Below, one piece after another: positions 4,220 to 62,617 of a stretch of 64,000 nucleotides of DNA. Position 1 is the stretch's first letter, and every line of letters starts with the position of its first letter. A program made the position numbers and the translations under genes. The notes under the pieces are model-generated. The model did no database searches and was not told the origin of the DNA. It worked only from the letters and a program-made list of their open reading frames with translations. The stretch is taken from NCBI RefSeq assembly GCF_003334305.1, contig NZ_QOWS01000018.1, one strand, 5' to 3'. The stretch comes from Escherichia coli (GTDB lineage: Bacteria > Pseudomonadota > Gammaproteobacteria > Enterobacterales > Enterobacteriaceae).

Positions 4220-4729
4220 TTAATGATACAAATTAGAGTGAATTTTTAGCCCGGAAAGTTGTCTCGTGGCGTGAGAGGATGCGCTTACCGGACGCATAAT
4301 AAACCCCATAGCGTTACCTTCATTTGCCGCATCAACAAGTTCAGCATGCTCTTCTTCAGTCAAATCATCTGCCAACCAACCGATCACCACACTGTAATTG
4401 CCCGTGCGTAAAGCGCGAACCATTGACTCCACAGTGTGGCAAGGGGAGAGCTGGCTAATCTGCATTACTTTCGTTAAGGGTAGCCCAGATGCCTGAACCC
4501 ATTCCCGACTCAGTTTTTGTTGCGGTGTTAACCAGAGTTGCCAGCGCGATTGCTGACCGAGTTGCTGTAACAATGGCAACAGTAGAAGTTGCGTCATCAT
4601 GGGCTGATCTTCGCGATAGACAACTTCACTGATAAGCCCGGCTGTAGTGTTTTCCGTAGAGACACGCGCAATTTTACTTGCTGCGGATGAGAACGACGAA
4701 GAACGATGTGCATAGCCTGAAGTGTACAT
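4220..4729 (-). CDS. sulA: SOS cell-division inhibitor SulA
   Basis: 169-aa protein [31 protein letters not shown]..., starting at the ATG two codons inside the track ORF. A LexA box lies just upstream. Confidence 0.95.
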
Positions 4730-4751
4730 AATCAATCCAGCCCCTGTGAGT

Positions 4752-4771
4752 TACTGTATGGATGTACAGTA
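4752..4771. promoter_or_regulatory. LexA (SOS) box of sulA
   Basis: TACTGTATGGATGTACAGTA fits CTG-N10-CAG / TACTG(TA)5CAGTA, 23 bp upstream of the sulA start. Confidence 0.9.
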
Positions 4772-4947
4772 CATCCAGTGACAACAAAGATCAACCCTAT
4801 TTTCGGAAAGAGCCTCGCAAATTTTGTCGTTGGTGACGGGAAAACATAAATTAATCTTGCCCCTTAAGAATAAGTTGCCTATTTTCGTAGTTAACGGATC
4901 CGTTAATGTGAATCATTCTTTTATGTTATTATTTTAAAAGGAATTTT

Positions 4948-49839: not shown

Positions 49840-50067
49840 TTAAACGTTTTTACGTTCGATGGTCTGTTCGCCCCAAAAAAGCGAATCTTTATCGGTCTTA
49901 GCAAAGGCTTTGACTAACACTTCATCGCTACCTTCTTCCCAAATCTTTTCCGCCATTTTTTCGTCGTACCCGGCGACTTCGAAAATGGCCTCGGCTATTT
50001 CCGGCGACGTATTGCGCAGAGATGCCCATTCACCGACGTGATGAGCTTTCGCTTCTTGAGTTGGCAT
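49840..50067 (-). CDS. yccJ: Small protein YccJ
   Basis: 75-aa [49 protein letters not shown], recognised as YccJ. Confidence 0.93.
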
Positions 50068-50087
50068 GCGTATCCTCCTGTTGAAGA

Positions 50088-50693
50088 TTAGCCGTTAAGT
50101 TTAACTGCCAGACCTGCGACATATTCCCCTTGATAACGAGCAATAGACAGTTCTTCCTGGCTTGGCTGGCGTGAGCCGTCACCGCCTGCGATGGTTGTTG
50201 CGCCGTACGGCGTACCGCCGCGAACCTGTGAAACGTCAAATAATTCCTGCGCTGCGTAGCCAATGGGGACAATTACCATGCCGTGATGCGCAAGGGTCGT
50301 CCAGGTTGAAGTAATAGTTTGTTCCTGACCGCCGCCAGTACCGGTGGAACTAAAGACGCTCGCCAGTTTTCCGTATAGTGCGCCGGAAGCCCACAGGCCG
50401 CCCGTCTGGTCGAGGAAGGTACGCATTTGACCGGACATGTTGCCAAAGCGGGTAGGTGTACCAAAAATAATGGCGTCGTAATCGGCCAGTTCTTGCGGGG
50501 TTGCAACCGGTGCAGTTTGCGTTTTACCGCCTGCTTTTTCAAATAATTGCGGCGGCATGGTTTCCGGTACACGCTTAACGACAACTTCTGCGCCATCCAC
50601 TTTGCTTGCACCCTCAGCGACTGCGCGTGCCATCGTTTCAATATGTCCGTACATGGAATAATAAAGCACTAGTATTCTTGCCTTAACACTCAT
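50088..50693 (-). CDS. wrbA: NAD(P)H:quinone oxidoreductase WrbA with an element-encoded substitute N-terminus
   Basis: The 201-aa ORF is identical in pattern to recalled WrbA from [21 protein letters not shown] onward. It begins MSVKARI instead of the K-12 MAKV. Those first codons and the GGAG RBS lie inside the inserted element (50670-50705). Confidence 0.9.
50663..50669. repeat. attL junction core (AAAGCAC)
   Basis: This is the last bases matching the wrbA sequence as recalled (GTGCTTT on the gene strand). The sequence diverges from 50670. Confidence 0.75.
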
Positions 50694-50744
50694 ATCATTG
50701 TTCTCCTGTTCAATGAACCACTTAGATAAGCATAGTCCGAAGAT

Positions 50745-52388
50745 ATGAAGCTGCTAGTGACATACATCAGGTGGAGTACTAAAGAGCAAGACTCAGGAGA
50801 CTCCTTAAGACGACAAACAAACCTCATTGATGCTTTCTACTCTAAGCACAAAAACGATTATTACCTTCTTCCTGCTCACAGATACGTTGATAAGGGTAAA
50901 TCTGGTTTTCACCAGCAACATAAGAATCAAGGTTCTGACTTCAGACGTATGTTTGAAAATGTTATGTCTGGGGCTATTCCAGAAGGTTCCCTGATTGTTG
51001 TAGAGAACTTTGACCGCTTCAGTAGGGCTGATATCGACACAGCTATAGATGATGTCAGGCAGATACTGAGGAAGGGAGTCTCTATACTGACTCTGGGAGA
51101 TGGTGAACTCTACGACAAGTCAGCATTAACAGACCCTGTGAAGCTGATTAAGCACATCATCATAGCTGAGCGAGCACATCAGGAATCTCTTGTTAAACAA
51201 AAGCGTATAGCTCAGGTCTGGAACCATAAAACACAGCTTGCAAGAGAACTTAAGAAGCCTATGGGTAAGCAAGCCCCCGGATGGTTAGAGCTATCAGAAG
51301 ACGGTTCACACTACATCGTTGATGAAGATAAAGCGTCACTGGTGAATATCATCTATGACAAGCGTCTTTCTGGTATGTCGATGTTTGCTATCTGCAAATG
51401 GCTAAACGAACAAGGTTACCCGACCATTAATCAGCGTAAGGTCAGAATATCCAAGACTAAGAAACCGGATGGTAACTGGTCAGCTTTAAGCGTTAAACAC
51501 ATCCTGACTTCACGAAGTGTATTAGGTTACCTTCCCGCTAAGATTTCTACAGAAGACCGTAAAACAGTGTTACGTGAAGAAATTGAAGGGTTCTATCCTC
51601 AGATTGTCACAGATTCTAAGTTTTACGCTGTACAGCAACTGTTAGAGGAAACAGGGAAGGGGAAAACATCCAGCGGTGACCACTGGTTATACGTGAACAT
51701 ACTGAAGGGGCTTATCCGTTGTAAGTGTGGGCTTGTAATGACTCCTACAGGGATACGTAAACCCGTTTATCAAGGTACTTACCGTTGCAATGGTAATAAG
51801 GAGTCCCGTTGTAGCTACGGTACAGTGTCCAGAAAGTTACTTGATACACAGCTTTGTAGTCGTCTGTTTAGCAAACTGTCACAGCTACACGATGAAGCTA
51901 CCGATACAGCTAAATTAGATGAACTACAAAGAAGATTAAACACCGTTGATGGTGAACTGGAAAAACTCACTGAGACGCTGATACAGCTTCCTAACATCAC
52001 TCAGATTCAAGAAGCACTACGGGTTAAACAGGAAGAAAAAGATGAACTGATAGTTCAGTTATCACGAGAAAAGGCGAGGGTAAAATCTGTATCAAGCTTG
52101 GATTTAAGCGGTCTTGATATGGAGTCTGTAGAGGGGAGAACTGAAGCCCAGATTATCATTAAGCGTCTGGTGAAAGAGATTGTTGTTTCTGGTAATGAAA
52201 AGCTGGTGGATATATATCTTCACAATGGAAATATGATTCGTGGTTTCCCTCTTGATGGTAAAGATGACCACACCTTAACGCTTGAAGAAGCAACCGATGA
52301 GATGCAGTCACTAGATGATATGCTTATTTTTGGTGAACCAGTAACAAGGATTTATCCTGCTGGTGATATGGAAGAGGTGGACGCTTAG
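50745..52388 (+). CDS. Large serine recombinase (integrase)
   Basis: 547 aa. N-terminal catalytic domain with YIRWSTKEQ (Ser nucleophile) and [11 protein letters not shown] recombinase domain, Cys-rich zinc-ribbon-like segment (CKCG...[14 protein letters not shown]) and a coiled-coil-like C-terminal region ([22 protein letters not shown]) follow. Confidence 0.88.
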
Positions 52389-53173
52389 TATTTTTTATTA
52401 GGGTTCACTGAGTACTTTTTAAGCTTTGAAGCTACTCGACCAGCGTTACTATTAGCATTGGTGACGTTGGTTTTTTCAGCTTCTGTTAAGTCTGAATAGT
52501 CCAGCTTCCAAGCCTTATTACACTTAATCTGAGCATCGAGAATATCATTTCTGATAGCTGGAGCGTAACCGGATACATCGCTAATACTCATTAGCTCTTT
52601 GCACGATAGCATAGGCGCGTTATTGCGTTCAGTGGTCACGTTACCTGCATTCTTCTTACTGGTCACACCACCATCATTCGTAGTCGCGGCTTTTCCAGTT
52701 GCAGCCGAGATATCAGTCTGCCCCACAACAGCTTTGAAGTTAATTTCCTGAAAAGTTAGTTGGATTCTTAATCCGTTTGAAATTCCAACATCTTTAGAGG
52801 CTTTAAAACTTGTGATAATGGAATCATCAATTTTAATTCCGTCTTTACAGATGACAGAAATAATCTGCTTCTGGTCACGCCAGTTTTCCAGAGTGTCAAT
52901 GAAGTTCTCTACTAATTGACCCTGACGAGTTAATAGTAAGCTTCCTTCATAACCAACTACAACGACACCACTGATAGTGATTGTTCTGGGTGCTCTTTGA
53001 ACATTATCTGTGACGGTTTGCCCTGATTGCATGTTCTGTGTAGTCACCTGCATAGGGCTATCAAATTCCATATTTTCAGTTGCTGATAAGGTTAAGAAGG
53101 CATCTACATTATCTCTTAAGTGGAAGTAAACGCCATCTTTGCCACTGTAGCGGATTTGATTGCTAAAAATCAT
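52385..53173 (-). CDS. Putative distal-tail/baseplate (Dit-like) protein
   Basis: Start set at ATG 53173, with AAGGAG six nt upstream, rather than the track's TTG at 53194. It lies immediately downstream of the tape-measure gene. The segment [34 protein letters not shown] resembles, from memory, the N-terminal pattern of Dit-like tail proteins. Not verified. Confidence 0.45.
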
Positions 53174-53190
53174 TAAATTCTCCTTTGATT

Positions 53191-53234
53191 TCAAAGGCTT
53201 AGTGTATTTTAATCATTTTTAACCAAGCCTTTGA
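53191..53234 (-). promoter_or_regulatory. 5'-leader hairpin preceding the Dit-like gene RBS
   Basis: Perfect 10-bp inverted repeat TCAAAGGCTT (53191-53200) / AAGCCTTTGA (53225-53234) with a 24-nt loop, between repeat cassette R1 and the RBS. Confidence 0.5.
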
Positions 53235-53253
53235 TATATAAGTATTTTCTCTG

Positions 53254-53323
53254 TTAAGCGTGAGCTACGTAAATTCTATTTTTCAGTGCGGGTATTAACT
53301 TTGCTTTATTCACGTAGAACACC
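53254..53323 (-). promoter_or_regulatory. Repeat cassette R1 (promoter-like) upstream of the Dit-like gene
   Basis: 70 bp, about 88% identical by eye to 55517-55586. On the gene strand it carries TAGAAT (complement of 53273-53278) with no good -35, plus CTACGTGAA and TACGTA boxes. Confidence 0.55.
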
Positions 53324-53329
53324 GTTAAA

Positions 53330-55498
53330 TCAATCATCTTCTGGGAATGATGAACTTAATAACGTAGCTTCTGCATATTGGTCGTAGATATTACTGCTAA
53401 AGGTCATAAAGCTGGTTTCATCTGGTTTAATGGCAACTTCACCACCAAGTGAAACTTTCACAGGCTCCTGAATACGCTTACTTAAAGCAGAGATTTCATC
53501 CCTCAGACCCTGAATATCTGCACTCGTTAATGCTGAATCTTGCTTAATGTTGTTTAATTCTGGATGATTGAATCTTGCAATATTCATTGTGGCATTGTTA
53601 AACAATTCACCCATTGAACTAAAAATTCTACTCCATCCTTCGTTAATCACATTCGGTTTATTAGGGTCACCAGAATACACAGGATTAAAGTCACTACCCA
53701 CACCTACCCCAGATGGATGCATATTAGCGTTTTTGACTACTTCCTGATTCATAAAATCCAGTGCTTTCTTCAATGCATATAAACCAAGAGTGACACCTCT
53801 GATTTGTGGAATCATTGAAGCTAATGCTAACGCTGTTTCATAACCGTCATCAGCATAACCAATTGCAAGAGCACTACCTACACCACCAGCTACACCTTTC
53901 AGTTTTCCACCACCTTTACCAGTAGCTACCTGACCAGCCACCTGATTAGCTCTTGTACCTAACGTTGTGATTGCTCTTGTCAGGTTCATAACCCCTGTAG
54001 TAGCACTGAATAGTGTCTTTGCAGATAACGCTATAGCAAGACCTTTGACGAAGTTGATAAATCCATCACCGACTTCATCAAGTAGCTTTCGCTTAGTGTC
54101 ATCAAGGCTGTAATAGGTCTTCTTAATCTGTAGAATCCAGCCTTCAAGGTGATTGTTAAAGATACGGATGTCATCTACACCAGCTTTAAGCATGTCGATA
54201 AGTCCACCGATAGCATCACCAGCGATAGAAGAACTCATACCCATTTCACTAAGCAGGTTACTCAGGCTGGATAAGAAGCCATTTAGCTCATCCTGTGAAC
54301 CTGAGAAGATTTTCACCATCGTATCATCCCAGTTGTTAGCCAGTTTCCCTAAAGCTGTCTGAGTGCTCTTAGCGACTTCAGCCCAGCCACCCGCTTTATC
54401 AATCATCAAGCCCATCTGTTTAGCGACTTTAGGGAGAGTATCACTACTTAAAATCTTCCCGTCTTTCATCGCTTTATCAAGCTCTGTAGCAGTCATACCC
54501 AGTGCTTCAGCGAATAGCTTAAATGCACCAGCCATACGGTCACCTAACTGACCACGAAGCTCTTCAGCCTGAATCTTGCCCTTGCTCGCCATCTGCTCAA
54601 ATGCTTTCAAAATGCCGTTTAGCTCATCGTTAGAAAGCCCCATTAAGCGACTCATAGCCGTTGCATTACCAAATAGCTCCTGTGTCTGTTCCTGTGACAT
54701 AGAACCCTGAGCACCTGCTGCAAACTTAGCGTAGCTTGATAGCCCTTCAGAGATATTAAGACCTGTCTTGTCTGCTAAATTTCGAATAAATACCTCAGCT
54801 TCAGATGCTTTATCACCAAGTACAAACTTAGCGGCTCTCTGTGCGGAATCTCGTTTAAGACCTGCATTCATGATGGCCTTGTAAGCGTTAAGAGCACCCA
54901 TCACAGAGTAAAATGCACCAGATAACTTGATTGCATTGCTTGCAAGATTATTAAATGCGTCGCTTGTATTGTTAATGCTGGTGGATGTATGACCTTTAGC
55001 TTTAGCAATTGCTTCTCTGACTGAAGCATTTAACTGAGTCAGCTTCTCATTGAATTTTGAAGAATCCATTGACCCAGCTTTAGCAGATAGCCCGTAAAAC
55101 TGAGATTTGATGTATTTCTGCAAAATAGGGTCAAAGCCTTTTAGCTTAGACATATTAGCTGAGTAAGCCGCTGTGATTGCTCTGTTGCCGCTAATTCGTG
55201 GCTGTCTTGGTTGTCTAAGTGGCTTTAAAGTGTCATCAATTTCCGTTTTAATCTTAAACGCTCTAGTGTTTTTAAGACGCTGCTCAATCTTGGAAACAGT
55301 TTTATCGACATTCTTTTCCATTAGTTTGAGAGAATCATTTAAAGGCGTAGGGTTAACTCTGAATGCCTTATTTAGTCGTTTCTCAATTCTTGATGCGATT
55401 TGCATCGTTTGTTTCTCGGCTTTTTCCAAGCCTTTTAAAACTTTCTGAGAGCTAAAACTTAGCTCAATCAAAAAATCATCAACTTTAAATTGTGCCAT
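53330..55498 (-). CDS. Phage tail tape-measure protein
   Basis: 722 aa, Ala/Gly/Leu-rich and predicted largely helical. The segment LNGILKAFEQMASKGKIQAEELRGQLGDRMAGAFKLFAEALGMTATELDKAMKDGKILSSDTL matches the conserved tape-measure core domain as I recall it (TIGR02675-type). A Gly-rich tract GKGGGKLKGVAGGVG follows. RBS is AAGAGGTG. Confidence 0.85.
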   Translation of the reverse strand: MAQFKVDDFLIELSFSSQKVLKGLEKAEKQTMQIASRIEKRLNKAFRVNPTPLNDSLKLMEKNVDKTVSKIEQRLKNTRAFKIKTEIDDTLKPLRQPRQPRISGNRAITAAYSANMSKLKGFDPILQKYIKSQFYGLSAKAGSMDSSKFNEKLTQLNASVREAIAKAKGHTSTSINNTSDAFNNLASNAIKLSGAFYSVMGALNAYKAIMNAGLKRDSAQRAAKFVLGDKASEAEVFIRNLADKTGLNISEGLSSYAKFAAGAQGSMSQEQTQELFGNATAMSRLMGLSNDELNGILKAFEQMASKGKIQAEELRGQLGDRMAGAFKLFAEALGMTATELDKAMKDGKILSSDTLPKVAKQMGLMIDKAGGWAEVAKSTQTALGKLANNWDDTMVKIFSGSQDELNGFLSSLSNLLSEMGMSSSIAGDAIGGLIDMLKAGVDDIRIFNNHLEGWILQIKKTYYSLDDTKRKLLDEVGDGFINFVKGLAIALSAKTLFSATTGVMNLTRAITTLGTRANQVAGQVATGKGGGKLKGVAGGVGSALAIGYADDGYETALALASMIPQIRGVTLGLYALKKALDFMNQEVVKNANMHPSGVGVGSDFNPVYSGDPNKPNVINEGWSRIFSSMGELFNNATMNIARFNHPELNNIKQDSALTSADIQGLRDEISALSKRIQEPVKVSLGGEVAIKPDETSFMTFSSNIYDQYAEATLLSSSFPEDD

Positions 55499-55516
55499 TG
55501 TTCATATTTCACCTCT

Positions 55517-55586
55517 TTAAGCGTGAGCTACGTAAATTCTATTTTTCAGTGTGGGTATTAGCTTTACAGATTTCACGTAGCACACA
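55517..55586 (-). promoter_or_regulatory. Repeat cassette R2 (promoter-like) upstream of the tape-measure gene
   Basis: Second copy of the 70-bp cassette. TAGAAT (complement of 55536-55541) lies about 38 nt upstream of the TMP ATG, directly downstream of a terminator. Confidence 0.55.
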
Positions 55587-55616
55587 TAGGATTCGATAGA
55601 AGACTATCTCATATAC

Positions 55617-55656
55617 AAAAAAGGAGAGTTACCGATGTCACTCGATAATCTCTCCC
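55617..55656 (-). terminator. Rho-independent terminator ending the 236-aa/71-aa transcription unit
   Basis: On the minus strand, GGGAGAGATTA...TAACTCTCC forms a hairpin (stems at 55650-55655 and 55623-55628) followed by a T6 run (55622-55617). Confidence 0.7.
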
Positions 55657-55699
55657 GTAGATTTTTACCCAACCAATTCTATTAGAAGCTAATCTCAAA

Positions 55700-55915
55700 T
55701 TAATGGTAAACGTAAGAATACATCCCATCATCACCTAAAATCTGTGCGTCACATGGTAATTTATCTAAGCACCATGAAGGAATCTTACGTACCTTTGGTT
55801 TATGTGAGGTGATAACTTGATGCTGATTTTTAATTCGTAGCTTTGGTTTAGTCTGAAGCTTTAAGTTCTCACAAACAGACTTAATAAGTTCATAGCGTTC
55901 TGTTAAATCAATCAT
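55700..55915 (-). CDS. Hypothetical protein (71 aa)
   Basis: ORF MIDLTERYELIKSVCENLKLQTKPKLRIKNQHQ... with RBS AAGAGGTGG. No family recognised. Confidence 0.6.
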   Translation of the reverse strand: MIDLTERYELIKSVCENLKLQTKPKLRIKNQHQVITSHKPKVRKIPSWCLDKLPCDAQILGDDGMYSYVYH

Positions 55916-55938
55916 TCACCACCTCTTTTAATTCATAG

Positions 55939-56649
55939 TTAAAGTGCCTTGCTATATTTCTGAGAAATCTTCACTAACTGCTCAATATCAGCCTGCATAG
56001 CAATCTTCTTCTGCGTTTCATATGCAGAAATAAGCTCTTTCATAGCCTGAAGCTCTCTTGAGAGATACAACTTAACATTTTCAAGTTGCTTGTTACGTGA
56101 TGCCAAGATGTTCTGTCTGGCAAGTTCAGCGAGTTCTTCATCGCTCTTATTAGTCGTGTAAATAAACTGACCAGCACCCCTTGAAGCTTTAACCATCTTC
56201 ACAATTCGATATCCAGCAGGAAGACTACTAATCACGGCTGCGACGTTTTCTTGAAAAGTACCAAAACCATCATTGTCTTCGTATGTGAAGTAAACATACG
56301 GCTTCTGTGACAATTCATCCTGAATCTCAAATTCTGACGGCTCAATAGCTGATTGCATCAGGGTAACTTTACTGTAAGCATCATCTAGTTTAATACGCTG
56401 TGCTTTTAGCAGTGGGTAATATTCACGCTCAAGCTCAAGTAATGCTTCAGTTTTGCATACATCAGGCATCTCTTGAGGCTCAGGAGACACAAAGATGATT
56501 TCCTTTGGTGACATTCGGATTTCTTGCTCAAGCTTAATTCTTTCATCGTGTTCTTTACGCTGAATAGCGATAGCTGGATGTTCAGTCTGTGGCGACCAGT
56601 CACCGAAGCTATCAATCACTTTGCCATTAATGTAAATATCATTTGTCAT
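55939..56649 (-). CDS. Hypothetical protein (236 aa) with a coiled-coil-like C-terminus
   Basis: ORF MTNDIYINGKVIDSFGDWSPQTEHPAIAIQ... with RBS GAGGAA. The C-terminal 70 aa are heptad-rich (LENVKLYLSRELQAMKELISAYETQKKIAMQADIEQL). No family recognised. Confidence 0.7.
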   Translation of the reverse strand: MTNDIYINGKVIDSFGDWSPQTEHPAIAIQRKEHDERIKLEQEIRMSPKEIIFVSPEPQEMPDVCKTEALLELEREYYPLLKAQRIKLDDAYSKVTLMQSAIEPSEFEIQDELSQKPYVYFTYEDNDGFGTFQENVAAVISSLPAGYRIVKMVKASRGAGQFIYTTNKSDEELAELARQNILASRNKQLENVKLYLSRELQAMKELISAYETQKKIAMQADIEQLVKISQKYSKAL

Positions 56650-56679
56650 TGTTTTTTCCTCTTCTAAGCTAAAGTATTT

Positions 56680-56765
56680 CAGTTTTTAAAAAGCACACCT
56701 GACAGCCTATCTAAACTTAGAAGAGACTTAAAAGGCGGTTTGCCAAGTATGCTTTTTAAAAGCTG
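56680..56765 (-). promoter_or_regulatory. Long inverted repeat in the leader of the 236-aa gene
   Basis: Arms CAGTTTTTAAAAAGCACAC (56680-56698) and GTATGCTTTTTAAAAGCTG (56747-56765) are complementary at about 17 of 19 positions, separated by about 48 nt. Confidence 0.5.
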
Positions 56766-56801
56766 AAAAAGCCCTAGATAACTAAAACGCTATAAAGGGC
56801 T
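56765..56801 (-). terminator. Attenuator-like hairpin plus T-run inside the leader
   Basis: On the minus strand, AGCCCT (56801-56796), a 20-nt loop, AGGGCT (56775-56770), then TTTTT (56769-56765). Located about 115 nt upstream of the 236-aa gene start. Confidence 0.4.
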
Positions 56802-57008
56802 AAGGTGAAGAAATTAAAACATCTAAAGGATTCAATAACGAATGAACAAAGACTTTTCGAGATAGCCTCTCAGGTTGTATAAGAGGCCATGTAGCGAAAA
56901 GCATTGCACCTTTCAGAATGTTCGGTATAGAACATACCTCACCAACTCAGAATATCCATCCATCGGATTATTGAAATAAATAAGAGAGAAATTCTCTCTA
57001 TAATTAAA

Positions 57009-57037
57009 ATTATGTCATGCTTAAGGTTATTTGTCAA
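57009..57037 (-). promoter_or_regulatory. Sigma70-type promoter (minus strand)
   Basis: TTGACA (complement of 57032-57037), a 17-bp spacer, then CATAAT (complement of 57009-57014). Followed at about +3 by the palindrome AGAGAGAA-A-TTCTCTCT (56983-56999). Confidence 0.55.
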
Positions 57038-57062
57038 CAGCTTTTTAACAGATTGGTAACAT

Positions 57063-57128
57063 TTATACTTTAATAGATGCACCTGCAATCATACCAATCA
57101 ACACAAAACAGAGAATCACCAATTCCAT
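57063..57128 (-). CDS. Candidate 21-aa hydrophobic peptide
   Basis: Hand-translated: MELVILCFVLIGMIAGASIKV. Its ATG overlaps the TAA of the upstream gene (TAATG), suggesting translational coupling. Confidence 0.4.
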   Translation of the reverse strand: MELVILCFVLIGMIAGASIKV

Positions 57129-57451
57129 TAATGCACCACCTTCGAATCCGTAACCAGAATATTATCGCTGTACAAAATTGCTATAGCCGCCTTGAGATAT
57201 TTTTCAGGGCTAACGCTGTATTTGTTCGTTTGCTCGACAACCAATCTTTTCATGTTGCTGTCTTTAATTGGTAGCATCATTCGAGGCTCGTTAAACTCCA
57301 CCGACTGAATAAAGTCAGAGATGCTTTCCGCATTATCAGTCATTAACTCTAACAACTTATCAAAGTCAATGCTAACACCTACATCAGTGAAAGCCTGAAT
57401 CATCATGGCGGTGTCGGTATCAATAAAAATCTGTAATTCGTAATTGTTCAT
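57128..57451 (-). CDS. Hypothetical acidic protein (107 aa)
   Basis: Start set at ATG 57451 (MNNYELQIFIDTD) with AAGGAG upstream. The track's TTG start at 57484 is rejected. No family recognised. Confidence 0.65.
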   Translation of the reverse strand: MNNYELQIFIDTDTAMMIQAFTDVGVSIDFDKLLELMTDNAESISDFIQSVEFNEPRMMLPIKDSNMKRLVVEQTNKYSVSPEKYLKAAIAILYSDNILVTDSKVVH

Positions 57452-57606
57452 TTTTAAAATCTCCTTTTTACCAGACCTCCTCAATCGCTCTGTAACGAGC
57501 TAAACAGTCTTTTTCAGGGGTAGCCTGTACAGTGGTATTACCCACCCTAAAATAAGATAGTTTTTTGCGTCAGAATGCGATTGAGAGCGTCTGAGAAGCT
57601 GTTTTT

Positions 57607-57894
57607 CTAATTTCTCTTAAAGTCTCGGACTTGCATAAGATTTTTTGGTCTGGTATCGGCTCTGTTACCATTTCGATGGATAATTTGCTTGTTGGATTGA
57701 TAGCCATGATAAAGAAACCAGACAACATATTTCACGTAGAAAGTATATCGGCCTATATTAAATGTTTTGTTGCCGTAGTCGTCGGTGTTTATCGTGACTG
57801 ACTCTCCATCAGACCAGCACAGGGAATCACTGGATTCATCATAGATAAGGTGTTCTGCAAAATATCTTCTAACATCTTCATTCCAAGGTTTCAT
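57607..57894 (-). CDS. HNH-like small protein (degenerate motif)
   Basis: 95 aa. YVVWFLYHGYQSNKQIIHRNGNRADTRPKNL resembles the HNH_3-type pattern (aHRlvw...G..idHiNGn..DNR..NL), but the usual Asp preceding the His and the DNR Asn are substituted. Confidence 0.5.
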   Translation of the reverse strand: MKPWNEDVRRYFAEHLIYDESSDSLCWSDGESVTINTDDYGNKTFNIGRYTFYVKYVVWFLYHGYQSNKQIIHRNGNRADTRPKNLMQVRDFKRN

Positions 57895-58106
57895 AAAACC
57901 TCCTCACCCCAATAACCTAATTCAATCTTGTGACGCTCAAACCATTCCGGTTTAACTGCTGTTTTCAGTACTTCATTTGGGCCAATGGCTTTAATGAAAA
58001 TATCTTTTGAGTTATGGATGTCACCGAATCCGTTTCCTTCAATCAGGAGGTCGGAGATGTAGCGAATCATTTTATCCGTGTGGTATTCAAAGGTAACGCA
58101 TAGCAT
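57891..58106 (-). CDS. Hypothetical protein (71 aa)
   Basis: ORF coupled at both ends: TAATG with the upstream gene and ATGA with the downstream gene. No family recognised. Confidence 0.6.
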   Translation of the reverse strand: MLCVTFEYHTDKMIRYISDLLIEGNGFGDIHNSKDIFIKAIGPNEVLKTAVKPEWFERHKIELGYWGEEVL

Positions 58107-58387
58107 TAAACCTCCAGAGACAGCTTGTGAATCTTAAGACTCAATAGACGGGCAATATCAATTTTAAAGCCGTTAAGTCCCTTCAAAGTATCTAAAGCGT
58201 CCTGAGTAATTCGGATGTGTTTACGACCTTTAGAGACTGGATATTTAAGTAAATCCGACTCAGTAACCTCTTTAGCAATTGCAAGCTGCATAACAGTCTG
58301 ATGAGGTAAGTTAGTAGCTCGTTTAATTCTGGCAAGCTCGTTAAAAGCTTCCTCTGAAATGCGGGTTAAAGTGTGTTTGTTTTTCAT
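58106..58387 (-). CDS. Putative tandem ribbon-helix-helix DNA-binding protein (93 aa)
   Basis: Two internal segments look like an RHH beta-strand plus helix: KHTLTRISEEAFNELARIKR and RKHIRITQDALDTLKGLNG. Inference from the pattern only. Confidence 0.4.
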   Translation of the reverse strand: MKNKHTLTRISEEAFNELARIKRATNLPHQTVMQLAIAKEVTESDLLKYPVSKGRKHIRITQDALDTLKGLNGFKIDIARLLSLKIHKLSLEV

Positions 58388-58388
58388 T

Positions 58389-58943
58389 TTAAAATTCCTC
58401 TGTAACTAAATACGGGTCAAATTCAAAGTCTGGTTCACTGGTTGTAAGGCTGATATTTCCAACTTCCGCATGATGATTAATTGTCTCAATAACTTTCATG
58501 CAAATAGTGGCTAAGTTAGCGCAATATTTATCACTTGGTAATTCGTAGCTAAGTCTGGTTGCTTGTCTTTGAAGATGGCTCGTCACTGTGCTTGAACTAA
58601 TCTCATCAAGACTTCGCAGTAAATAAAAAACCTTCCGGTGATAATTATCTCTTCCAAGACTGCGACAAGTACCGATAATTACATCTTCAATTCGTGGCGG
58701 TAATTGCTCGTAAGAATCAAAGCCCATCAAGAAAGTTTTTAAAGTATTCTCTTTTTCTTTGCGTGCTGGCATAAATCTGTCTCGTGGCGTAATGCTACGA
58801 ATGACCGCTTCAATGTTCTTACGTTCGGATTTGCTAAAGGTTGGGACTTCGTAGCTGGTGGGGGTGTCTGTGTGGCTGTAACCGTTGTGTCTGTTGCGTT
58901 CTCTTGATGCCTGAAGCATCGCTCTAAATTCTCTGTCGTTCAT
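58389..58943 (-). CDS. Hypothetical protein (184 aa), first gene of the leftward operon
   Basis: ORF MNDREFRAMLQASRERNRHNGYSHTD... directly downstream of the promoter at 58994-59022. No family recognised. Confidence 0.65.
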   Translation of the reverse strand: MNDREFRAMLQASRERNRHNGYSHTDTPTSYEVPTFSKSERKNIEAVIRSITPRDRFMPARKEKENTLKTFLMGFDSYEQLPPRIEDVIIGTCRSLGRDNYHRKVFYLLRSLDEISSSTVTSHLQRQATRLSYELPSDKYCANLATICMKVIETINHHAEVGNISLTTSEPDFEFDPYLVTEEF

Positions 58944-58993
58944 TCATAAGCTAGTCCTTATAATTGTTAATTCTCTGTTAACTTATATATACA

Positions 58994-59022
58994 ATACTAG
59001 CATTTTCAAAGACTAATGTCAA
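58994..59022 (-). promoter_or_regulatory. Sigma70-type promoter of the leftward operon
   Basis: TTGACA (complement of 59017-59022), a 17-bp spacer, then TAGTAT (complement of 58994-58999). Confidence 0.6.
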
Positions 59023-59029
59023 GCATTTT

Positions 59030-59059
59030 TTAACATTTCATTAACATCTGTGGTATAAT
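59030..59059 (+). promoter_or_regulatory. Divergent extended -10 promoter (rightward)
   Basis: TTAACA (59030-59035), then TGG-TATAAT (TG at 59051-59052, TATAAT at 59054-59059). Back-to-back with the leftward promoter. Confidence 0.55.
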
Positions 59060-59186
59060 GGTTCTATGGGGAGAGTAAAATATAAAGGCGTGGCTATGAG
59101 GTTTATTCGATAGGGGTTGGTACAAGCCCAACCAACCGAATCAACTATGTATGTCACATGGTATTGCATTGCACACAGGAAATTTA

Positions 59187-59363
59187 ATGGTAAATCTCCC
59201 TCCTGAACTGGGGTCACCTGATGTATGGGCTGGTGGAGGTATCGGGCTGATTGCAGGTCTGTTACTCCGCTACGTCCTTGTCAGAGTGCTTGTTGTGTTC
59301 CGATTGTTCGGTCGTACATGGACGCTTGACCTTAAGGATAATGAGCACACAGAACCCCGTTAA
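59187..59363 (+). CDS. Candidate small membrane protein (58 aa; 70 aa if started at 59151)
   Basis: MVNLPPELGSPDVWAGGGIGLIAGLLLRYVLVRVLVVFRLFGRTW... contains one hydrophobic helix. AGGAA lies 5 nt upstream of ATG 59187, while the ATG at 59151 has no RBS. The local composition is more GC-rich than its neighbours. Confidence 0.45.
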   Translation: MVNLPPELGSPDVWAGGGIGLIAGLLLRYVLVRVLVVFRLFGRTWTLDLKDNEHTEPR

Positions 59364-59406
59364 GCTCCCTTCAAATCCCCCTGTACGAGATGGCATAGGG
59401 GTGTCT

Positions 59407-59422
59407 TTAGCATTTTGTGCTA
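59407..59422. promoter_or_regulatory. Operator-like inverted repeat TTAGCA-N5-TGCTA
   Basis: TTAGCATTTTGTGCTA. The 18-nt box TCTTTAGCATTTTGTGCT (59404-59421) recurs at 60678-60695, and each copy is followed by (A)CTTGACA(G/A)AA. Confidence 0.45.
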
Positions 59423-59483
59423 TCTATTAAAAAATAACTTGACAGAACCGGAAAGCTGTATCTATCAGGTATTCACCTCTCTG

Positions 59484-59559
59484 ACAGTAACTTCTAAAAG
59501 TTCTTATTTTTCAATGAGTTGTAATCACCCATATATAGAGAACTGACAAGTCTCTTCAC
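59484..59559 (+). repeat. 76-bp direct repeat, copy 1
   Basis: ACAGTAACTTCTAAAAGTTCTTATTTTTCAATGAGTTGTAATCACCCATATATAGAGAACTGACAAGTCTCTTCAC. About 89% identical to copy 2, and the last 31 nt are identical. Confidence 0.9.
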
Positions 59560-59578
59560 AATTAACTCTGTAACCTTA

Positions 59579-59654
59579 ACAGTGATTTCTAAAAATGCTT
59601 ATTTTTCAATAAGTTGTAATTAGCCATATATAGAGAACTGACAAGTCTCTTCAC
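59579..59654 (+). repeat. 76-bp direct repeat, copy 2
   Basis: ACAGTGATTTCTAAAAATGCTTATTTTTCAATAAGTTGTAATTAGCCATATATAGAGAACTGACAAGTCTCTTCAC. The period is 95 bp. Confidence 0.9.
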
Positions 59655-59971
59655 GGAGAACTTCCTGGACTCACTAAGATACAAGGCGATAACCCCAGAA
59701 AGGGAGAGCCACCTTCTAATTGGTATTGTTATGAGGATGCTTCATCCGAATCATCTACCAATCCCTAAACCGACTTCTTAAACAATCTTTACAGACCCCG
59801 TTCACCAGTCTCAATATTTTTATTTCTCGCTCTTCGTTTGTTGCTCGTTTCTATTATTGAGGGGGTTTGAAAAACCTCTGTAAAATAACCCTTCCAGTAA
59901 AAAGCGAATAACCCCAGAGAGGGGGAATCGCCTCTTTAACATTCTCATAATCAGTGCTCTATATGAGAATT

Positions 59972-60640
59972 TCAGCCCAACCTTTGAACAATCTTGTAAG
60001 TGGTGCTTAGAGGCATTCTTAGCGATTCTGCGATGCTCTTGACGGATTGCCCTTGGCCATGCAGTTTAATCAGCCTGTCAAGCGTCTGTGCATCGTGTAT
60101 ATGAGGTCTTCCACGTAAACCACCCCTGTTAACCACGGCAAGTAAAAGCATTGTGTCGCCACAATAGATTGTTTGTGTAACTTCAACCTTCGGTTTACGG
60201 GGTGTGTTCCTGTATATCAAAACGCAACTTGCAAACGGTGAACGCACTACAACACCTTTCTTCCCTGCTGGTGGAAGGTATTTGACTGCTCGGTGTAACG
60301 TTCGAATCTCATGCAGAAAGGGGTTTGTATATACACACCGAAGCCAGTAAGTTGTCTTTGACCTGTGCGGAACCAGACATACACACACATCAGCTTCATG
60401 GGATTTTAGGAGGAACCTTTCAGCCATGCTAAACGGCGGGTTAACGAAGACCCGTTCACCAACCCATGATTGATTGTGAATATCATCGGTGAACCGTGGC
60501 AACAATGCGTCATGCTCAGTTGCAGCACCATCCATCGAAAAACCAAATTCACGGTGTAGGTTACGAAATAAACGATACGGTGTACGCCAGTCATCAGAAC
60601 CACCATGATAACGACCGACATTGATTATTGGATGTGACAC
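59972..60640 (-). CDS. Phage Dam-type N6-adenine DNA methyltransferase fused to a C-terminal HTH
   Basis: 222 aa with a GTG start. SDDWRTPYRLFRNLHREFGFSMDGAAT and VFVNPPFS (NPPF catalytic motif) fit the phage Dam family (pfam05869-like, from memory). The C-terminal GQSVKSIAESLRMPLSTTYKIVQRL looks like a resolvase-type HTH. Confidence 0.75.
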   Translation of the reverse strand: MSHPIINVGRYHGGSDDWRTPYRLFRNLHREFGFSMDGAATEHDALLPRFTDDIHNQSWVGERVFVNPPFSMAERFLLKSHEADVCVCLVPHRSKTTYWLRCVYTNPFLHEIRTLHRAVKYLPPAGKKGVVVRSPFASCVLIYRNTPRKPKVEVTQTIYCGDTMLLLAVVNRGGLRGRPHIHDAQTLDRLIKLHGQGQSVKSIAESLRMPLSTTYKIVQRLG

Positions 60641-60677
60641 AAGCGAAGCGCCCCTCTTAGTATATTTCTTAATCGTC

Positions 60678-60724
60678 TCTTTAGCATTTAGTGCTTTTTG
60701 TTAAGTTTAGCACTTTTTGCTAAA
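60678..60724. promoter_or_regulatory. Two operator-like inverted repeats upstream of the methyltransferase gene
   Basis: TTAGCATTTAGTGCT (60681-60695) and the perfect TTTAGCA-CTTTT-TGCTAAA (60706-60724), followed by TTGACA at 60735-60740. Confidence 0.45.
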
Positions 60725-61142
60725 GACAAAACACTTGACAAAATGGTAAGATTGTTCACATGACCTTACTTAACAGATTCTTAAGAGCTTTGAAACGAAC
60801 TGTTTAACAAGGTCACTACCTCTGGTCTTATCGTTCCCTCTCTTCTTGGTAGTTCTGTTAAGTATCTTTTCAGGTATCTCTTACAGTCACTGTTAAGATA
60901 GAACCTACCTTCGGTTTCATGGTTCTCTTCCTCCCGTTAAATATCCCTTCACAGTCAGACTAAATAACACCTCTGTAGTTTCTTGGTAGAATCTTTCAAG
61001 GTAACTTAACTCTGAGTTTATGAAGTTGACCTTAGTCAATGTTTGTGAAGGTGTTACAGAGCATGTTCTCTAGGTCTGTGTAGCTCACTAAGCGAGAGAG
61101 GGGATATGTGACCATAGGGGAACCCCTCCTGTTAAAAGTTTC

Positions 61143-61170
61143 TTGATGTTATCATCACAATATGTATAAT
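61143..61170 (+). promoter_or_regulatory. Sigma70-type promoter (plus strand) in an ORF-free region
   Basis: TTGATG (61143-61148), a 16-bp spacer, then TATAAT (61165-61170). Confidence 0.55.
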
Positions 61171-61176
61171 CACCAA

Positions 61177-61337
61177 CTGTACAGACACCTTAACGGTTTC
61201 TCTACACCTCACTATGGCTAGGTAGGGTATGGTTTAGCTTGGTACGGCTAGGTTAGGTCTGGTTTGGTTAGGTATGGGTGGATTGTCGTAGCCACGTTAA
61301 AAATCGACTTATAGGGACTCTTTCGGGAGTCCTTTTT
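61177..61337 (+). ncRNA. Candidate ~160-nt small RNA with tandem 15-nt G/T-rich units
   Basis: Bounded by the promoter at 61143-61170 and the terminator at 61315-61337. It contains no ORF longer than 5 codons. Five consecutive 15-nt units begin at 61216, 61231, 61246, 61261 and 61276 (GGCTAGGTAGGGTAT / GGTTTAGCTTGGTAC / GGCTAGGTTAGGTCT / GGTTTGGTTAGGTAT / GGGTGGATTGTCGTA). Confidence 0.35.
61315..61337 (+). terminator. Rho-independent terminator (plus strand)
   Basis: GGACTC (61315-61320), loop TTTCGG, GAGTCC (61327-61332), then TTTTT (61333-61337). Confidence 0.65.
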
Positions 61338-61541
61338 AGTTTGTATAAAATCTGTACAGGAGTTATCAGGCTTCTAAAATTTTTATAAAAAATAATCAGA
61401 CCTCTTCTAAGCCTCTTCAACCAAATCTTTCGAAAATATCTGACAGATGTCTGTAGCTGCTAAGTACCCGTCACACCAGCTATGTGACCCCCTTGGCAAA
61501 AAAGCCAAATATCAGCTACATCCATGTAACTATTCAGTAAC

Positions 61542-62093
61542 TTATTTAGCAAGTCTGTAATAAGTTGCTCTAGAGATTCCTAACTCTTCCTGAATCTGCA
61601 ACCTCGTCTTACCTTGTGAAATAAGCGTCTGTACAGCCTCTGAAGAAGCCTTTACAGGCCTCCCCATATGTACCCCTTCAGCTTTAGCACGTTCAATACC
61701 AGCCTTTCTACGCTCTGCTATCAAGCTTCTTTCAAGCTGTGCCAACGTTGACATAATGCCTAACATTGCTTCACCCATAGCGCTTGATAAGTCAAACCCT
61801 TCTCTAAGGCTGATAACTGTCACACCTTTAGCCTGTAGCGCTTTAACCGTTGATAACACATCAATTGTGTCACGTCCAAGACGGTCTACAGCTACCACAA
61901 CTACGGTGTCACCTTCTCGTGCATAAGCTAACAAACTACTGAAACCGTTTCTTAAAGAAGCTTTGACAGAACCACTGACAGCTTCATCAGTGAACCATTT
62001 AGCAATGTTGTACCCTGCCTCTTCAATTTGCATTTGCTGGTTAGTGATGGATTGGTCATCTGTACTCACCCTGCAATATCCAAGTATCGCCAT
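61542..62093 (-). CDS. Small serine recombinase (resolvase/invertase family)
   Basis: 183 aa. MAILGYCRVSTDDQ (Ser nucleophile), VVAVDRLGRD, an E-helix LAQLERSLIAERRKAGIERAKAEG, GRP, and a C-terminal HTH ISRATYYRLAK. Confidence 0.9.
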   Translation of the reverse strand: MAILGYCRVSTDDQSITNQQMQIEEAGYNIAKWFTDEAVSGSVKASLRNGFSSLLAYAREGDTVVVVAVDRLGRDTIDVLSTVKALQAKGVTVISLREGFDLSSAMGEAMLGIMSTLAQLERSLIAERRKAGIERAKAEGVHMGRPVKASSEAVQTLISQGKTRLQIQEELGISRATYYRLAK

Positions 62094-62107
62094 ACATCCC
62101 CCTTAGA

Positions 62108-62231
62108 AGTCTCAAAAGTTAGTCTCATAAGTTTAGCTGTCTCATAATCCAAAAACAACCTTTTGAGACTACTTGAGGGTGCATTCTACCGTTACGTTGA
62201 AAGTGTCTCAAAAGGAAGTCCTTTTAAGACT
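62108..62231. promoter_or_regulatory. res-like cluster of recombinase binding sites
   Basis: There are six GTCTCA / T(G/A)AGAC half-sites. They include a 28-bp inverted pair TGTCTCAAAAGGAAGTCCTTTTAAGACT (62204-62231), a 33-bp inverted pair TGTCTCATAATCCAAAAACAACCTTTTGAGACT (62138-62170), and AGTCTCAAAAGTTAGTCTCATAA (62108-62130) next to the recombinase start. Confidence 0.6.
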
Positions 62232-62427
62232 GGTTATGAAGGAGCTATGAAGATTTTAGGAGGGTAACTATAACCATCACTTTCTAACTTTCACGTAGGA
62301 AATCGTTAAGTTTCTTGATAGTTACACCATGTGACCAACTATCTATATATCGTTATATAGCCCTGTATATAACACTTTTCTAGGAGTCGAGAGAGGGACG
62401 ACTAACACGATACAGTTTACCCTGAAA

Positions 62428-62447
62428 AGAGACTTCACAGATTCTCT
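62428..62447. repeat. Inverted partial third copy of the 76-bp repeat core
   Basis: AGAGACTTCACAGATTCTCT compares with the reverse complement of AGAGAACTGACAAGTCTCT (59537-59555 and 59632-59650). It is flanked by TCTCTATATAT and TTCAATAAGTT, which are also shared with the repeats. Confidence 0.7.
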
Positions 62448-62610
62448 ATATATTTCAATAAGTTAGGCTAAAAAGAGACTATACCGATACTGTATAGAAT
62501 CTGTGTAGAATTGCTTAGATACTTGGAAAAATGCCTTTAAATTGAATAGGTACTAACCTGTTTATGTCCTGTTATTAACAGGTAGTTGAATGTACGTGTT
62601 TAGCTATGTA

Positions 62611-62617
62611 AAAGCAC
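62611..62617. repeat. attR junction core (AAAGCAC)
   Basis: Identity with the native wrbA 5' end as recalled resumes here (AAAGCACCAGAACTTTAGCCAT is the complement of ATGGCTAAAGTTCTGGTGCTTT). Confidence 0.75.

Follow-up and report, generated by a model that had tools for sequence, protein, structure and literature searches.

T1, HP1 and VT2 Dam, small phage N6-adenine methyltransferases of the PF05869/TIGR01712 family, are stand-alone enzymes that target GATC. In the CcrM-type orphan m6A methyltransferases an extra C-terminal domain contacts DNA, as we propose below for the protein described here; CcrM differs from this protein in its class and fold order, in a C-terminal domain that is not of the resolvase type, and in being encoded by a chromosomal cell-cycle gene. 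Methyltransferases that carry a fused helix-turn-helix (HTH) and also act as transcription factors have been described among the cytosine enzymes of restriction-modification systems. M.SsoII and M.Ecl18kI, C5-cytosine enzymes with an N-terminal HTH, belong to such a system and repress through the fused HTH at a dedicated operator (PMC3978073, PMC2760811). In the searched literature we found no characterised example of an orphan phage-Dam-type adenine enzyme with a resolvase-type DNA-binding domain.

Here we analyse a gene that encodes a protein of this architecture, located in a 64,000-nucleotide stretch of Escherichia coli DNA (the window; Table 1). The 222-aa protein shares with the phage Dam family the motifs DxWxTP and FxxDxAA, a motif IV of the NPPY type (NPP[YF]), the size of the catalytic core, a mobile-element setting and the lack of a restriction partner. 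It differs from the family in a C-terminal extension of ~70 aa that ends in a resolvase-type HTH, in a low score against the family's equivalog profile, and in belonging to an island that has no GATC, the family's classical target. With M.SsoII and M.Ecl18kI it has in common a methyltransferase joined to a separate HTH and, in the lineage of the window, a palindromic candidate operator upstream of the gene. In contrast to these enzymes, it is of the N6-adenine type, its HTH is C-terminal and resolvase-like, no cognate endonuclease stands under the same control, and the boxes that form the candidate operator are missing at most homologous loci. Like the serine recombinases Hin, gamma-delta/Tn3 resolvase and Tn552 Bin3, the protein has a GRP minor-groove arm followed by a three-helix HTH, whereas it lacks their recombinase catalytic domain. 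We suggest that it is a catalytically active orphan m6A methyltransferase, anchored on DNA or guided to its sites by its own HTH, and that its gene is optional cargo of a Felixounavirus-related island. We give this reading about an even chance.

Table 1. Features of the methyltransferase locus and its island, with positions in the window
Feature	Position	Strand	Remark
Methyltransferase-HTH CDS	59972..60640	-	222 aa, GTG start
Dam-family (PF05869) N6-adenine methyltransferase catalytic domain	60209..60598	-	residues 15-144
Gly/Arg 'RGRP' arm and three-helix resolvase/invertase-type HTH	59978..60112	-	residues 177-221
Perfect palindrome TTTAGCActtttTGCTAAA	60707..60725		TTTAGCA-N5-TGCTAAA, 7+5+7; 67-85 nt upstream of start codon
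Imperfect box TTAGCAtttagTGCTtt	60681..60697		41-57 nt upstream of start codon
Third box TTAGCAttttgTGCTAt	59407..59423		part of island core, not of methyltransferase
Terminator-like GC-clamped hairpin CCCCCTGTAC...ATAGGGG	59377..59401	+	between small membrane ORF and third box
Conserved TTGACA, possible -35 of rightward promoter	59440..59445	+	17 nt past third box
Paralogous TTGACA	60736..60741	+	11 nt past perfect box
Conserved ORF-free region	60742..61345	+	intrinsic terminator at its end, 61313-61334
10-bp-phased GGT/GGYTAGG repeats and GTAGCCACGTTAAAAATC	61215..61308	+	common to Felixounavirus intergenic repeat
Small serine recombinase (Resolvase and HTH_7)	61542..62093	-	183 aa; within island
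Five GTCTCAWAAG copies, both orientations	62105..62220		upstream of recombinase gene
Host island, ~11.9 kb	about 50745..62610		inserted between wrbA and ymdF

A phage Dam-type methyltransferase joined to a resolvase-type HTH

The product of the ORF does consist of two domains, a phage Dam-type methyltransferase followed by a resolvase-type HTH, as the preliminary description of this DNA had proposed. Its GTG start is supported by an alignment in which homologues start at the same residue, either with GTG or with ATG, and the RefSeq label is 'DNA N-6-adenine-methyltransferase' (WP_097344000). Residues 1 to ~150 make up a complete phage Dam-family N6-adenine methyltransferase of the stand-alone type, after which come two extra beta-strands, the GRP arm and the HTH. 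The Pfam Dam profile (PF05869) matches the catalytic domain with an E value of 3e-13 and 50.2 bits, above the gathering cutoff of 28.1 bits. The three motifs first noticed in the protein, DDWRTP (residues 16-21), MDGAAT (36-41) and NPPF (67-70), are all present. Across 13 family members DxW(R)TP, DGAAT and NPP[FY] show no variation; among 66 sequences N-P-P and F34 are invariant, and the window protein has FSMDGAAT. An AF2 model based on the alignment of 66 sequences has a mean pLDDT of 90.9 and a pTM of 0.82, and the catalytic domain has the Rossmann-type fold of N6-adenine methyltransferases. The NCBIfam equivalog profile TIGR01712 (phage_N6A_met) matches residues 15-82 only and scores 39.1 bits, far under its cutoff of 97.05; thus, the specificity of the characterised phage Dam enzymes cannot be transferred to this protein. 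Hia5, Hin1523 and Nme1821, non-specific adenine methyltransferases considered as possible PF05869 members, were dropped from the comparison, as their FxGxG and DPPY motifs and target-recognition region place them in a different class.

The low equivalog score raises the question whether the methyltransferase domain is dead or acts on RNA, in which case the protein would essentially be a DNA-binding regulator. The top Foldseek matches, which include PCIF1 (the mRNA cap m6Am enzyme) and rRNA adenine methyltransferases, point in the same direction. We consider this very improbable, since the catalytic and SAM-site motifs are all invariant and the median dN/dS of the methyltransferase domain is 0.30. 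For the C-terminal part the value is 0.19, indicating purifying selection on both parts of the protein.

The C-terminal extension is particular to this subfamily, and stand-alone members of the family are just 150-175 aa long. Among the 50%-identity clusters listed, the HTH-bearing extension is present in only about 7; the fusion persists in clusters with an identity of only 41-54%. The extension has the three-helix HTH fold after the GRP arm. HTH_7 (PF02796) scores 21.3 bits (E 3e-4), formally under its gathering cutoff of 23.8 bits, and a precomputed PF02796 match is present in several close homologues. The GRP arm can be aligned with the DNA-binding domain of the adjoining recombinase. The methyltransferase HTH and that domain are only 28% identical, indicating that the HTH is no recent copy of the recombinase's domain. 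Within the island, we found no further HTH related to the methyltransferase C-terminus besides that of the recombinase.

The neighbours of the methyltransferase gene are non-coding DNA and the small serine recombinase. In agreement with the preliminary description, no restriction partner was found near the gene, for which PADLOC returned an 'orphan methyltransferase' (oMTase) call only. Peptide-pattern scans derived from the E. coli alignment gave no matches in GTDB representative genomes and IMG/VR; one Erwinia homologue was found afterwards with P0127.

The host island and its Felixounavirus ties

The host island consists of a large serine recombinase, a Dit-like baseplate protein, a tape measure, unknowns, an HNH endonuclease, further unknowns, non-coding modules and variable cargo, in this order. 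The island integrates by its large serine recombinase at three or more chromosomal sites, with the gene order recurring at wrbA/ymdF, yecE and tonB/yciI, and is carried by about 8-10% of the complete E. coli genomes. Beside the large serine recombinase, only the tape measure, Dit-like and HNH proteins have family matches. No capsid, terminase or replication genes were recognised in the island, consistent with a small integrative element.

The methyltransferase gene belongs, as accessory cargo, to the right arm of this ~12-kb island, which is variable. It is present in 214 of 5426 complete E. coli genomes, compared with 437-527 genomes that have the flanking non-coding modules. About half of such islands are without the gene, and at one locus (L005) the junction without the methyltransferase is clean. 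Because the gene is accessory, its product cannot be the repressor of the element, a role that had been suggested for it.

The island is tied to FelixO1-like phages by its proteins, by a repeat and by its composition. Across 98% of its length, the Dit-like protein shares 76% identity with proteins from about 250 FelixO1-like phages, and the tape measure protein aligns over its full length with its FelixO1-like counterparts at 29-32% identity. A 95-nt phased repeat is common to the island and 97 FelixO1-like phages. GATC is absent from the island, where 43 would be expected, and from phage garuso, where 158 would be expected; the FelixO1-like phage VpaE1 has likewise been reported to be without GATC (PMC4690856). 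As a caveat, most of the IMG/VR entries matched by island proteins are provirus calls made on isolate genomes. Ties of this kind (Dit-like protein, tape measure, repeat and GATC avoidance) would be expected between a satellite and its helper phage. Based on homology and genome signature, we suggest that the island may be a satellite of virulent FelixO1-like phages (Felixounavirus), a proposal that we judge evenly balanced.

A described system of comparable design is the PLE of Vibrio cholerae with phage ICP1 (PMC9410903). Like the PLE, the E. coli island is small, encodes a large serine recombinase, has no recognised capsid, terminase or replication genes and shows sequence ties to a virulent myovirus. 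It differs from the PLE in host and putative helper family and in encoding tape measure and baseplate homologues of its own. If it is a satellite, the island would be an E. coli counterpart of the PLE/ICP1 system. The context of the island weighs more than the enzyme itself: the puzzle is a 'Dam' enzyme in a putative GATC-free parasite of a GATC-free phage.

The absence of GATC from the island excludes the classical Dam role in self-protection, and it is the reason why we propose a non-GATC target. In the reading that we favour, the protein would be an active orphan DNA m6A methyltransferase, with its own HTH supplying DNA anchoring or site targeting, and island, host or helper DNA would be marked at this target. 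The m6A mark might shield the DNA against restriction or nucleases once it has been transferred, or it might serve as an epigenetic mark.

TTAGCA boxes and rightward modules

The three TTAGCA-N5-TGCTAA boxes of the preliminary description exist, but their limits had been given as 60681-60695, 60706-60724 and 59407-59422 and are corrected in Table 1. A scan of the whole window with up to two mismatches returned six matches against 3.0 expected, which is no enrichment. Four of the six fall inside 1.3 kb, where ~0.06 would be expected, and the imperfect box sits in a 30-nt repeat paralogous to the region of the left (third) box. The clustering and the paralogous repeats together indicate that the box copies are real and related and not due to chance.

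We asked if these boxes are the binding sites of the methyltransferase HTH, in which case the protein would repress its own promoter and regulate or repress the element. The half-sites are 11 bp apart, a spacing that suits a dimeric HTH. Judged from the sequence, a possible extended -10 on the minus strand (TGn-TAAACT) coincides in part with the perfect box, and the imperfect box follows immediately downstream. Across 50 genomes the boxed upstream region shows 97-100% conservation, and M.SsoII and M.Ecl18kI provide a precedent for repression by a methyltransferase. The distribution of the boxes argues against this possibility. Both upstream boxes are found at two of the 22 loci compared (the window and L004) and are missing upstream of the gene at the other 20, six of which share the recognition helix STTY[KR]IVQRL, yet differ in the upstream region. 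Seven further loci are free of boxes within 2.5 kb, and the boxed 'type A' promoter variant occurs in only 52-53 genomes, compared with the 214 that carry the gene. The operator is not kept wherever the protein is kept, as it would be in a self-regulating system. The third box, on the other hand, is invariant, regardless of the HTH allele, in the 13 aligned loci that retain this module, including L005, whose island has no methyltransferase. An accessory gene also cannot encode the element's master repressor. We therefore regard binding of the HTH to all three boxes, with repression of the promoter and the element, as unlikely.

What stands of the earlier idea of a self-regulating methyltransferase is that it is feasible in the boxed lineage, where the perfect box overlaps the possible extended -10; with upstream boxes at two of 22 loci, it does not extend to the family. 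It is possible that the HTH, or another protein that binds the box, represses the methyltransferase gene in this lineage only. The box itself appears to belong to the island core as a cis element tied to the rightward TTGACA modules; in this lineage two extra copies of the box were probably duplicated in front of the gene. The type B upstream regions contain a degenerate TTAGRC-N5-AGCTAA relic at -45, which may be a decaying ancestral operator. A palindromic operator common to the three upstream types was considered and rejected: only CTTAAR-N5-STTAAG is shared, and it is also present in islands without the methyltransferase. The box was likewise rejected as an operator of the helper phage, as 45 kb of phage garuso contain 8 matches against 3.6 expected, mostly intragenic and with no clear enrichment.

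The two TTGACA motifs next to the boxes are possible parts of rightward promoters. The left one is followed by a weak -10, TATCAR, at a spacer of 18 nt, and the consensus scan made no call. The right one faces conserved non-coding DNA, away from the methyltransferase gene, and the consensus scan found no convincing -10 for it. Two sister loci carry the loop of the hairpin next to the third box in inverted orientation. Within the ORF-free region, a UUCG-loop hairpin (about 60895-60925) is maintained via two compensatory haplotypes and is the only hairpin that shows such changes. The segment 60765-61345 was dismissed as a long structured RNA, as its single-sequence folding is unexceptional (z -1.4 on the plus strand and -2.0 on the minus strand). 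An Rfam search of 50000-64000 with E up to 1 gave no family match.

The position of the boxes, 11-17 nt upstream of conserved plus-strand TTGACA motifs, suggests another role for the HTH. In a tethered, 'DamID-like' enzyme, the HTH would be the target-recognition element, adjacent adenines would be methylated, and the mark, written locally, would act as a switch for the rightward promoters linked to the boxes or for non-coding transcripts. In its favour, only this subfamily of otherwise short enzymes has the extension, the pTM of the model suggests a defined two-domain arrangement, and a GATC-free island needs another target. Stand-alone members of the family, however, are sequence-specific by themselves. 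The left box and its TTGACA module also persist without the methyltransferase gene, and neither a -10 element nor an RNA was demonstrated by promoter scan or folding. A tethered enzyme that works in this way is thus improbable in our estimate. Were the HTH to decide where methylation takes place, the protein would amount to a naturally occurring equivalent of DamID and offer a compact means of targeting m6A. We find a combined scheme similarly doubtful, in which the island would be an undescribed FelixO1-like satellite, the HTH would dock at sites such as the TTAGCA boxes, and local m6A would act as an epigenetic switch on box-linked promoters in a GATC-free genome.

The adjoining serine recombinase

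The small serine recombinase is encoded upstream of the methyltransferase gene and is co-directional with it. Many E. coli loci have a small serine recombinase adjoining the methyltransferase gene, which raises the possibility of a phase-variable epigenetic regulator, expressed under the control of the recombinase, through a phase-variable promoter or read-through. A homologue in Erwinia typographi, 45% identical, comes after a FimB/E-sized tyrosine recombinase. There, an intergenic segment of 792 nt is flanked by a perfect 14-nt inverted repeat, a length reached in 7 of 2000 shuffles. In E. coli, by contrast, the orientation is fixed: the recombinase of the 182/183-aa type is co-directional in 8 of 8 cases and the 189-aa type is opposite in 3 of 3. 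There is no inverted homology between loci, and many carriers have no adjoining recombinase (L004, L013-L017, L020, L021 and L023). We consider a recombinase-linked, phase-variable module to have little chance of being correct.

For E. coli, a DNA inversion of either the recombinase or the methyltransferase segment was rejected, as the loci show no minus-strand homology to one another and an orientation fixed by allele. A 15-nt inverted repeat (60628-60642 and 61865-61879) was judged to be due to chance; it falls on the conserved LGRD motif of the recombinase and on a self-palindromic GTGTCAC. The GTCTCAWAAG array upstream of the recombinase gene appears to resemble a res site rather than hix sites, which also speaks against the phase-variable module.

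Domain architecture of the methyltransferase

The methyltransferase is a member of Pfam family PF05869 with a resolvase-type HTH. The protein is annotated as a 'DNA N-6-adenine-methyltransferase'. Residues 15–144 match Dam (PF05869; E 3e-13, 50.2 bits, above the 28.1-bit cutoff), and residues 177–217 match HTH_7 slightly below its cutoff (E 3e-4; 21.3 versus 23.8 bits). The PHROGs match is 'DNA methyltransferase' (E 9.5e-25), and PADLOC returned 'orphan methyltransferase' alone at this locus. The Pfam match and the PADLOC call bear out the preliminary description of an orphan Dam-type enzyme with the family motifs. These motifs (DxWRTP, DGAAT and NPP[FY]) are invariant in 13 variants from E. 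coli, Shigella and E. albertii (68–88% identical), which likewise retain the RGGLRGRP arm and the MPLST[TS]Y[KR]I[VA]QRL helix.

Among 1.84 billion cluster representatives searched, about six more full-length fusion clusters were found, at 41–54% identity; past these, the matches are exclusively stand-alone Dam-family proteins of 150–175 aa. In the alignment, a complete stand-alone enzyme corresponds to residues 1 to about 150; the final ~70 residues are confined to the fused subfamily. An AlphaFold2 model of the fusion, built from a deeper alignment (mean pLDDT 90.9, pTM 0.82), combines a Rossmann-type core with two extra strands (155–172), a lower-confidence linker and three helices (184–221). 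Selection maintains both domains: over 155 pairwise comparisons, the median dN/dS is 0.30 (methyltransferase part) and 0.19 (C-terminal part). The refuting case named in the preliminary description, a C-terminus without an HTH, does not apply.

Boxes and non-coding regions

All three inverted repeats reported earlier (boxes, TTAGCA-N5-TGCTAA) are present, at coordinates that differ by 1–2 bases. Across the whole window, the box pattern with up to two mismatches is found 6 times versus 3.0 expected, which is no enrichment; four of the six matches fall inside 1.3 kb. The copies sit in paralogous repeats of 30 nt (D3) and 16 nt (D13).

Features around the methyltransferase gene and the right end of its island (window coordinates)
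Feature	Position (strand)	Description
Hairpin CCCCCTGTAC...ATAGGGG	59377-59401	GC-clamped; after small membrane ORF
Third box	59407-59423	
Conserved TTGACA	59440 (+)	
Tandem 76-nt direct repeats (D1)	59484-59654 (+)	91% identical, 95 nt apart; downstream of TTGACA
ATAACCCCAGARAGGG-type module	59689, 59908	related form at 60630, 61103
Inverted copy of the ATATAGAGAACTGA core of the 76-nt repeats (I10, I11)	59951-59964	beside methyltransferase stop codon
Methyltransferase ORF	59972-60640 (-)	222 aa, GTG start
Imperfect box	60681-60697	upstream of methyltransferase gene
Perfect box TTTAGCA-N5-TGCTAAA	60707-60725	upstream of methyltransferase gene
Non-coding region	60742-61345 (+)	ORF-free
UUCG-loop hairpin	about 60895-60925 (+)	
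Phased GGT/GGYTAGG repeats	61215-61308	10-bp phasing; end is GTAGCCACGTTAAAAATC
Intrinsic terminator	61313-61334 (+)	strong; closes the non-coding region
GTCTCAWAAG repeats	62105-62220	five, in both orientations; directly upstream of small serine recombinase gene
Core chromosome	from about 62611	

Boxes and protein were compared at 22 loci, drawn from complete genomes and assemblies and all placed in gene orientation. Both upstream boxes (type A) occur only in the window and in one other locus, L004. In six loci (L020–L025) the recognition helix is the same as in the window and the upstream region is different (type B); the two types have common sequence only up to ...TTTTGTCTTT and then again from the Shine-Dalgarno region on, and at -45 type B has nothing but a variable, degenerate TTARNC-AAAAT-AG[CT]TAA relic. 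Another six loci (L007–L012) carry a third upstream type. All 13 aligned loci have the third box in identical form regardless of HTH allele, and it is also present in L005, an island in which the methyltransferase gene is missing and, as in others like it, the two flanks are cleanly joined. Seven methyltransferase-carrying loci lack any box within 2.5 kb. Box and protein therefore occur independently. Among 5426 complete E. coli genomes, the methyltransferase gene is found in 214, the boxed type A region in 52–53, the conserved non-coding region on the gene's right-hand side in 437 and either flanking non-coding module in 527.

The third box lies between the GC-clamped hairpin and a strongly conserved TTGACA module on the + strand. 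As a cis element, the box is part of the island's core, and the box-TTGACA module seems to have been duplicated to give the type A region (D3, D13). Read from the sequence, the perfect box of type A overlaps an extended -10 on the - strand (TGn-TAAACT), followed by the imperfect box. Thus, repression of the methyltransferase gene by some box binder is plausible. The self-regulation proposed in the preliminary description would fit type A in this way, but as a lineage-specific arrangement, with boxes upstream of the gene in 2 of the 22 loci. Elsewhere in the island, no relative of the C-terminal HTH was found but the recombinase, and the box shows no clear enrichment in a Felixounavirus genome.

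Four words are over-represented within 59000-62700: CTGTACAG (5 vs 0.2 expected), CTGTTAA (8 vs 1.2), GTTAAG (10 vs 3.4) and TTAGCA (12 vs 3.8). The 16-nt loop of the GC-clamped hairpin is inverted in two sister loci (L005, L022), a small inversion flanked by the CCCC and GGGG arms.

The ORF-free region is commoner than the methyltransferase gene. Its UUCG-loop hairpin is kept via two fully compensatory haplotypes, AGAACC..GGTTCT and GATAC..GTATC. The folding energy of the region overall is unremarkable, and Rfam gave no match to it. The region may encode a non-coding RNA of ~570 nt.

The island and FelixO1-like phages

More surprising than the methyltransferase itself is its island, a GATC-free, Felixounavirus-related satellite candidate. 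Given where the core chromosome restarts, the island extends from the large serine recombinase gene at 50745 to ~62610, between wrbA and ymdF. The large serine recombinase is followed by a Dit-like 'baseplate' protein, a tape measure protein, unknown genes, an HNH endonuclease, further unknown genes, ~0.55 kb of non-coding DNA, the methyltransferase, ~0.9 kb non-coding, a small serine recombinase and ~0.5 kb non-coding. An identical gene order is found at two other sites, one within yecE and one between tonB and yciI. The island has no recognised gene for capsid, terminase or replication functions. Its right arm is variable: depending on the strain, the methyltransferase is present or absent, and the arm may hold either of two small serine recombinase cassettes, unrelated and oppositely oriented, or an AP2-domain gene; a conserved stretch of ~250–330 nt always closes it and forms the right end of the island. 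This arm is a cargo hotspot (L005 15124-15648; L006 13968-14537; L009–L012 about 4018-4781).

With 76% identity across 98% of its length, the Dit-like protein matches a protein in ~250 Felixounavirus genomes, and the tape measure protein is 29–32% identical to its Felixounavirus counterparts over the full length. The phased repeats match an intergenic repeat in 97 Felixounavirus genomes, with about 75% identity (L028 3001-3089). In these phages the repeat lies within the replication gene cluster, where in phage garuso it adjoins DNA ligase; it may be a common origin or another cis site. GATC is absent from the island (50701-62610; 0 versus 42.8 expected; host flank 214 versus 198) and from 45 kb of phage garuso (1-45000; 0 versus 158), and sister islands (L003, L004, L006) are GATC-free except inside IS insertions. 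In the FelixO1-like phage VpaE1, GATC and DNA-modification genes are both reported absent (PMC4690856). These four results (Dit-like protein, tape measure protein, phased repeat and GATC absence) connect the island with virulent FelixO1-like myoviruses, and we infer that it parasitises these phages in the manner of a satellite. Such a satellite appears to be previously undescribed. Within the literature searched, no paper connects Felixounavirus and satellites, and the island did not turn up in searches on phage satellites. IMG/VR matches to the island proteins are mostly provirus calls in isolate genomes. CTGCAG and GAATTC are likewise missing from the island.

Predicted role and recombination sites

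Characterised members of the phage Dam family are GATC enzymes, and E. coli already has Dam. Because the island lacks GATC, a GATC enzyme would be unable to protect or mark the element that carries it; the methyltransferase therefore probably targets a non-GATC site or other DNA. The protein matches the NCBIfam equivalog TIGR01712 only weakly (39 bits; cutoff 97 bits), and transfer of specificity from the family is therefore unwarranted. Most economically, the methyltransferase would be island cargo: a putative orphan m6A methyltransferase, anchored or targeted to DNA by its HTH, that would modify island, host or helper DNA at a non-GATC target, either to protect that DNA or to mark it epigenetically.

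In its working, the protein may come closest to the bifunctional M.SsoII / M.Ecl18kI type. It falls outside this group, since the methyltransferase class differs, the HTH is of another type and at the opposite end, the endonuclease partner is missing, and the group's defining feature, an operator conserved along with the protein, does not hold across the loci compared.

A 45%-identical fusion (P0127) is found in Erwinia typographi (L041 8636-10705, from NZ_JRUQ01000008.1), in a different island with tyrosine recombinases, one of which, FimB/E-sized (186 aa), is encoded upstream of P0127. A perfect 14-nt inverted repeat (9130-9143 / 9936-9949), of a length reached in only 7 of 2000 shuffles, brackets a 792-nt intergenic segment there, which may be a fim-like invertible promoter. 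No sign of inversion was found at the E. coli loci. The GTCTCAWAAG repeats resemble the res site of a resolvase, which suggests that this small serine recombinase, the 'invertase', is really a resolvase.
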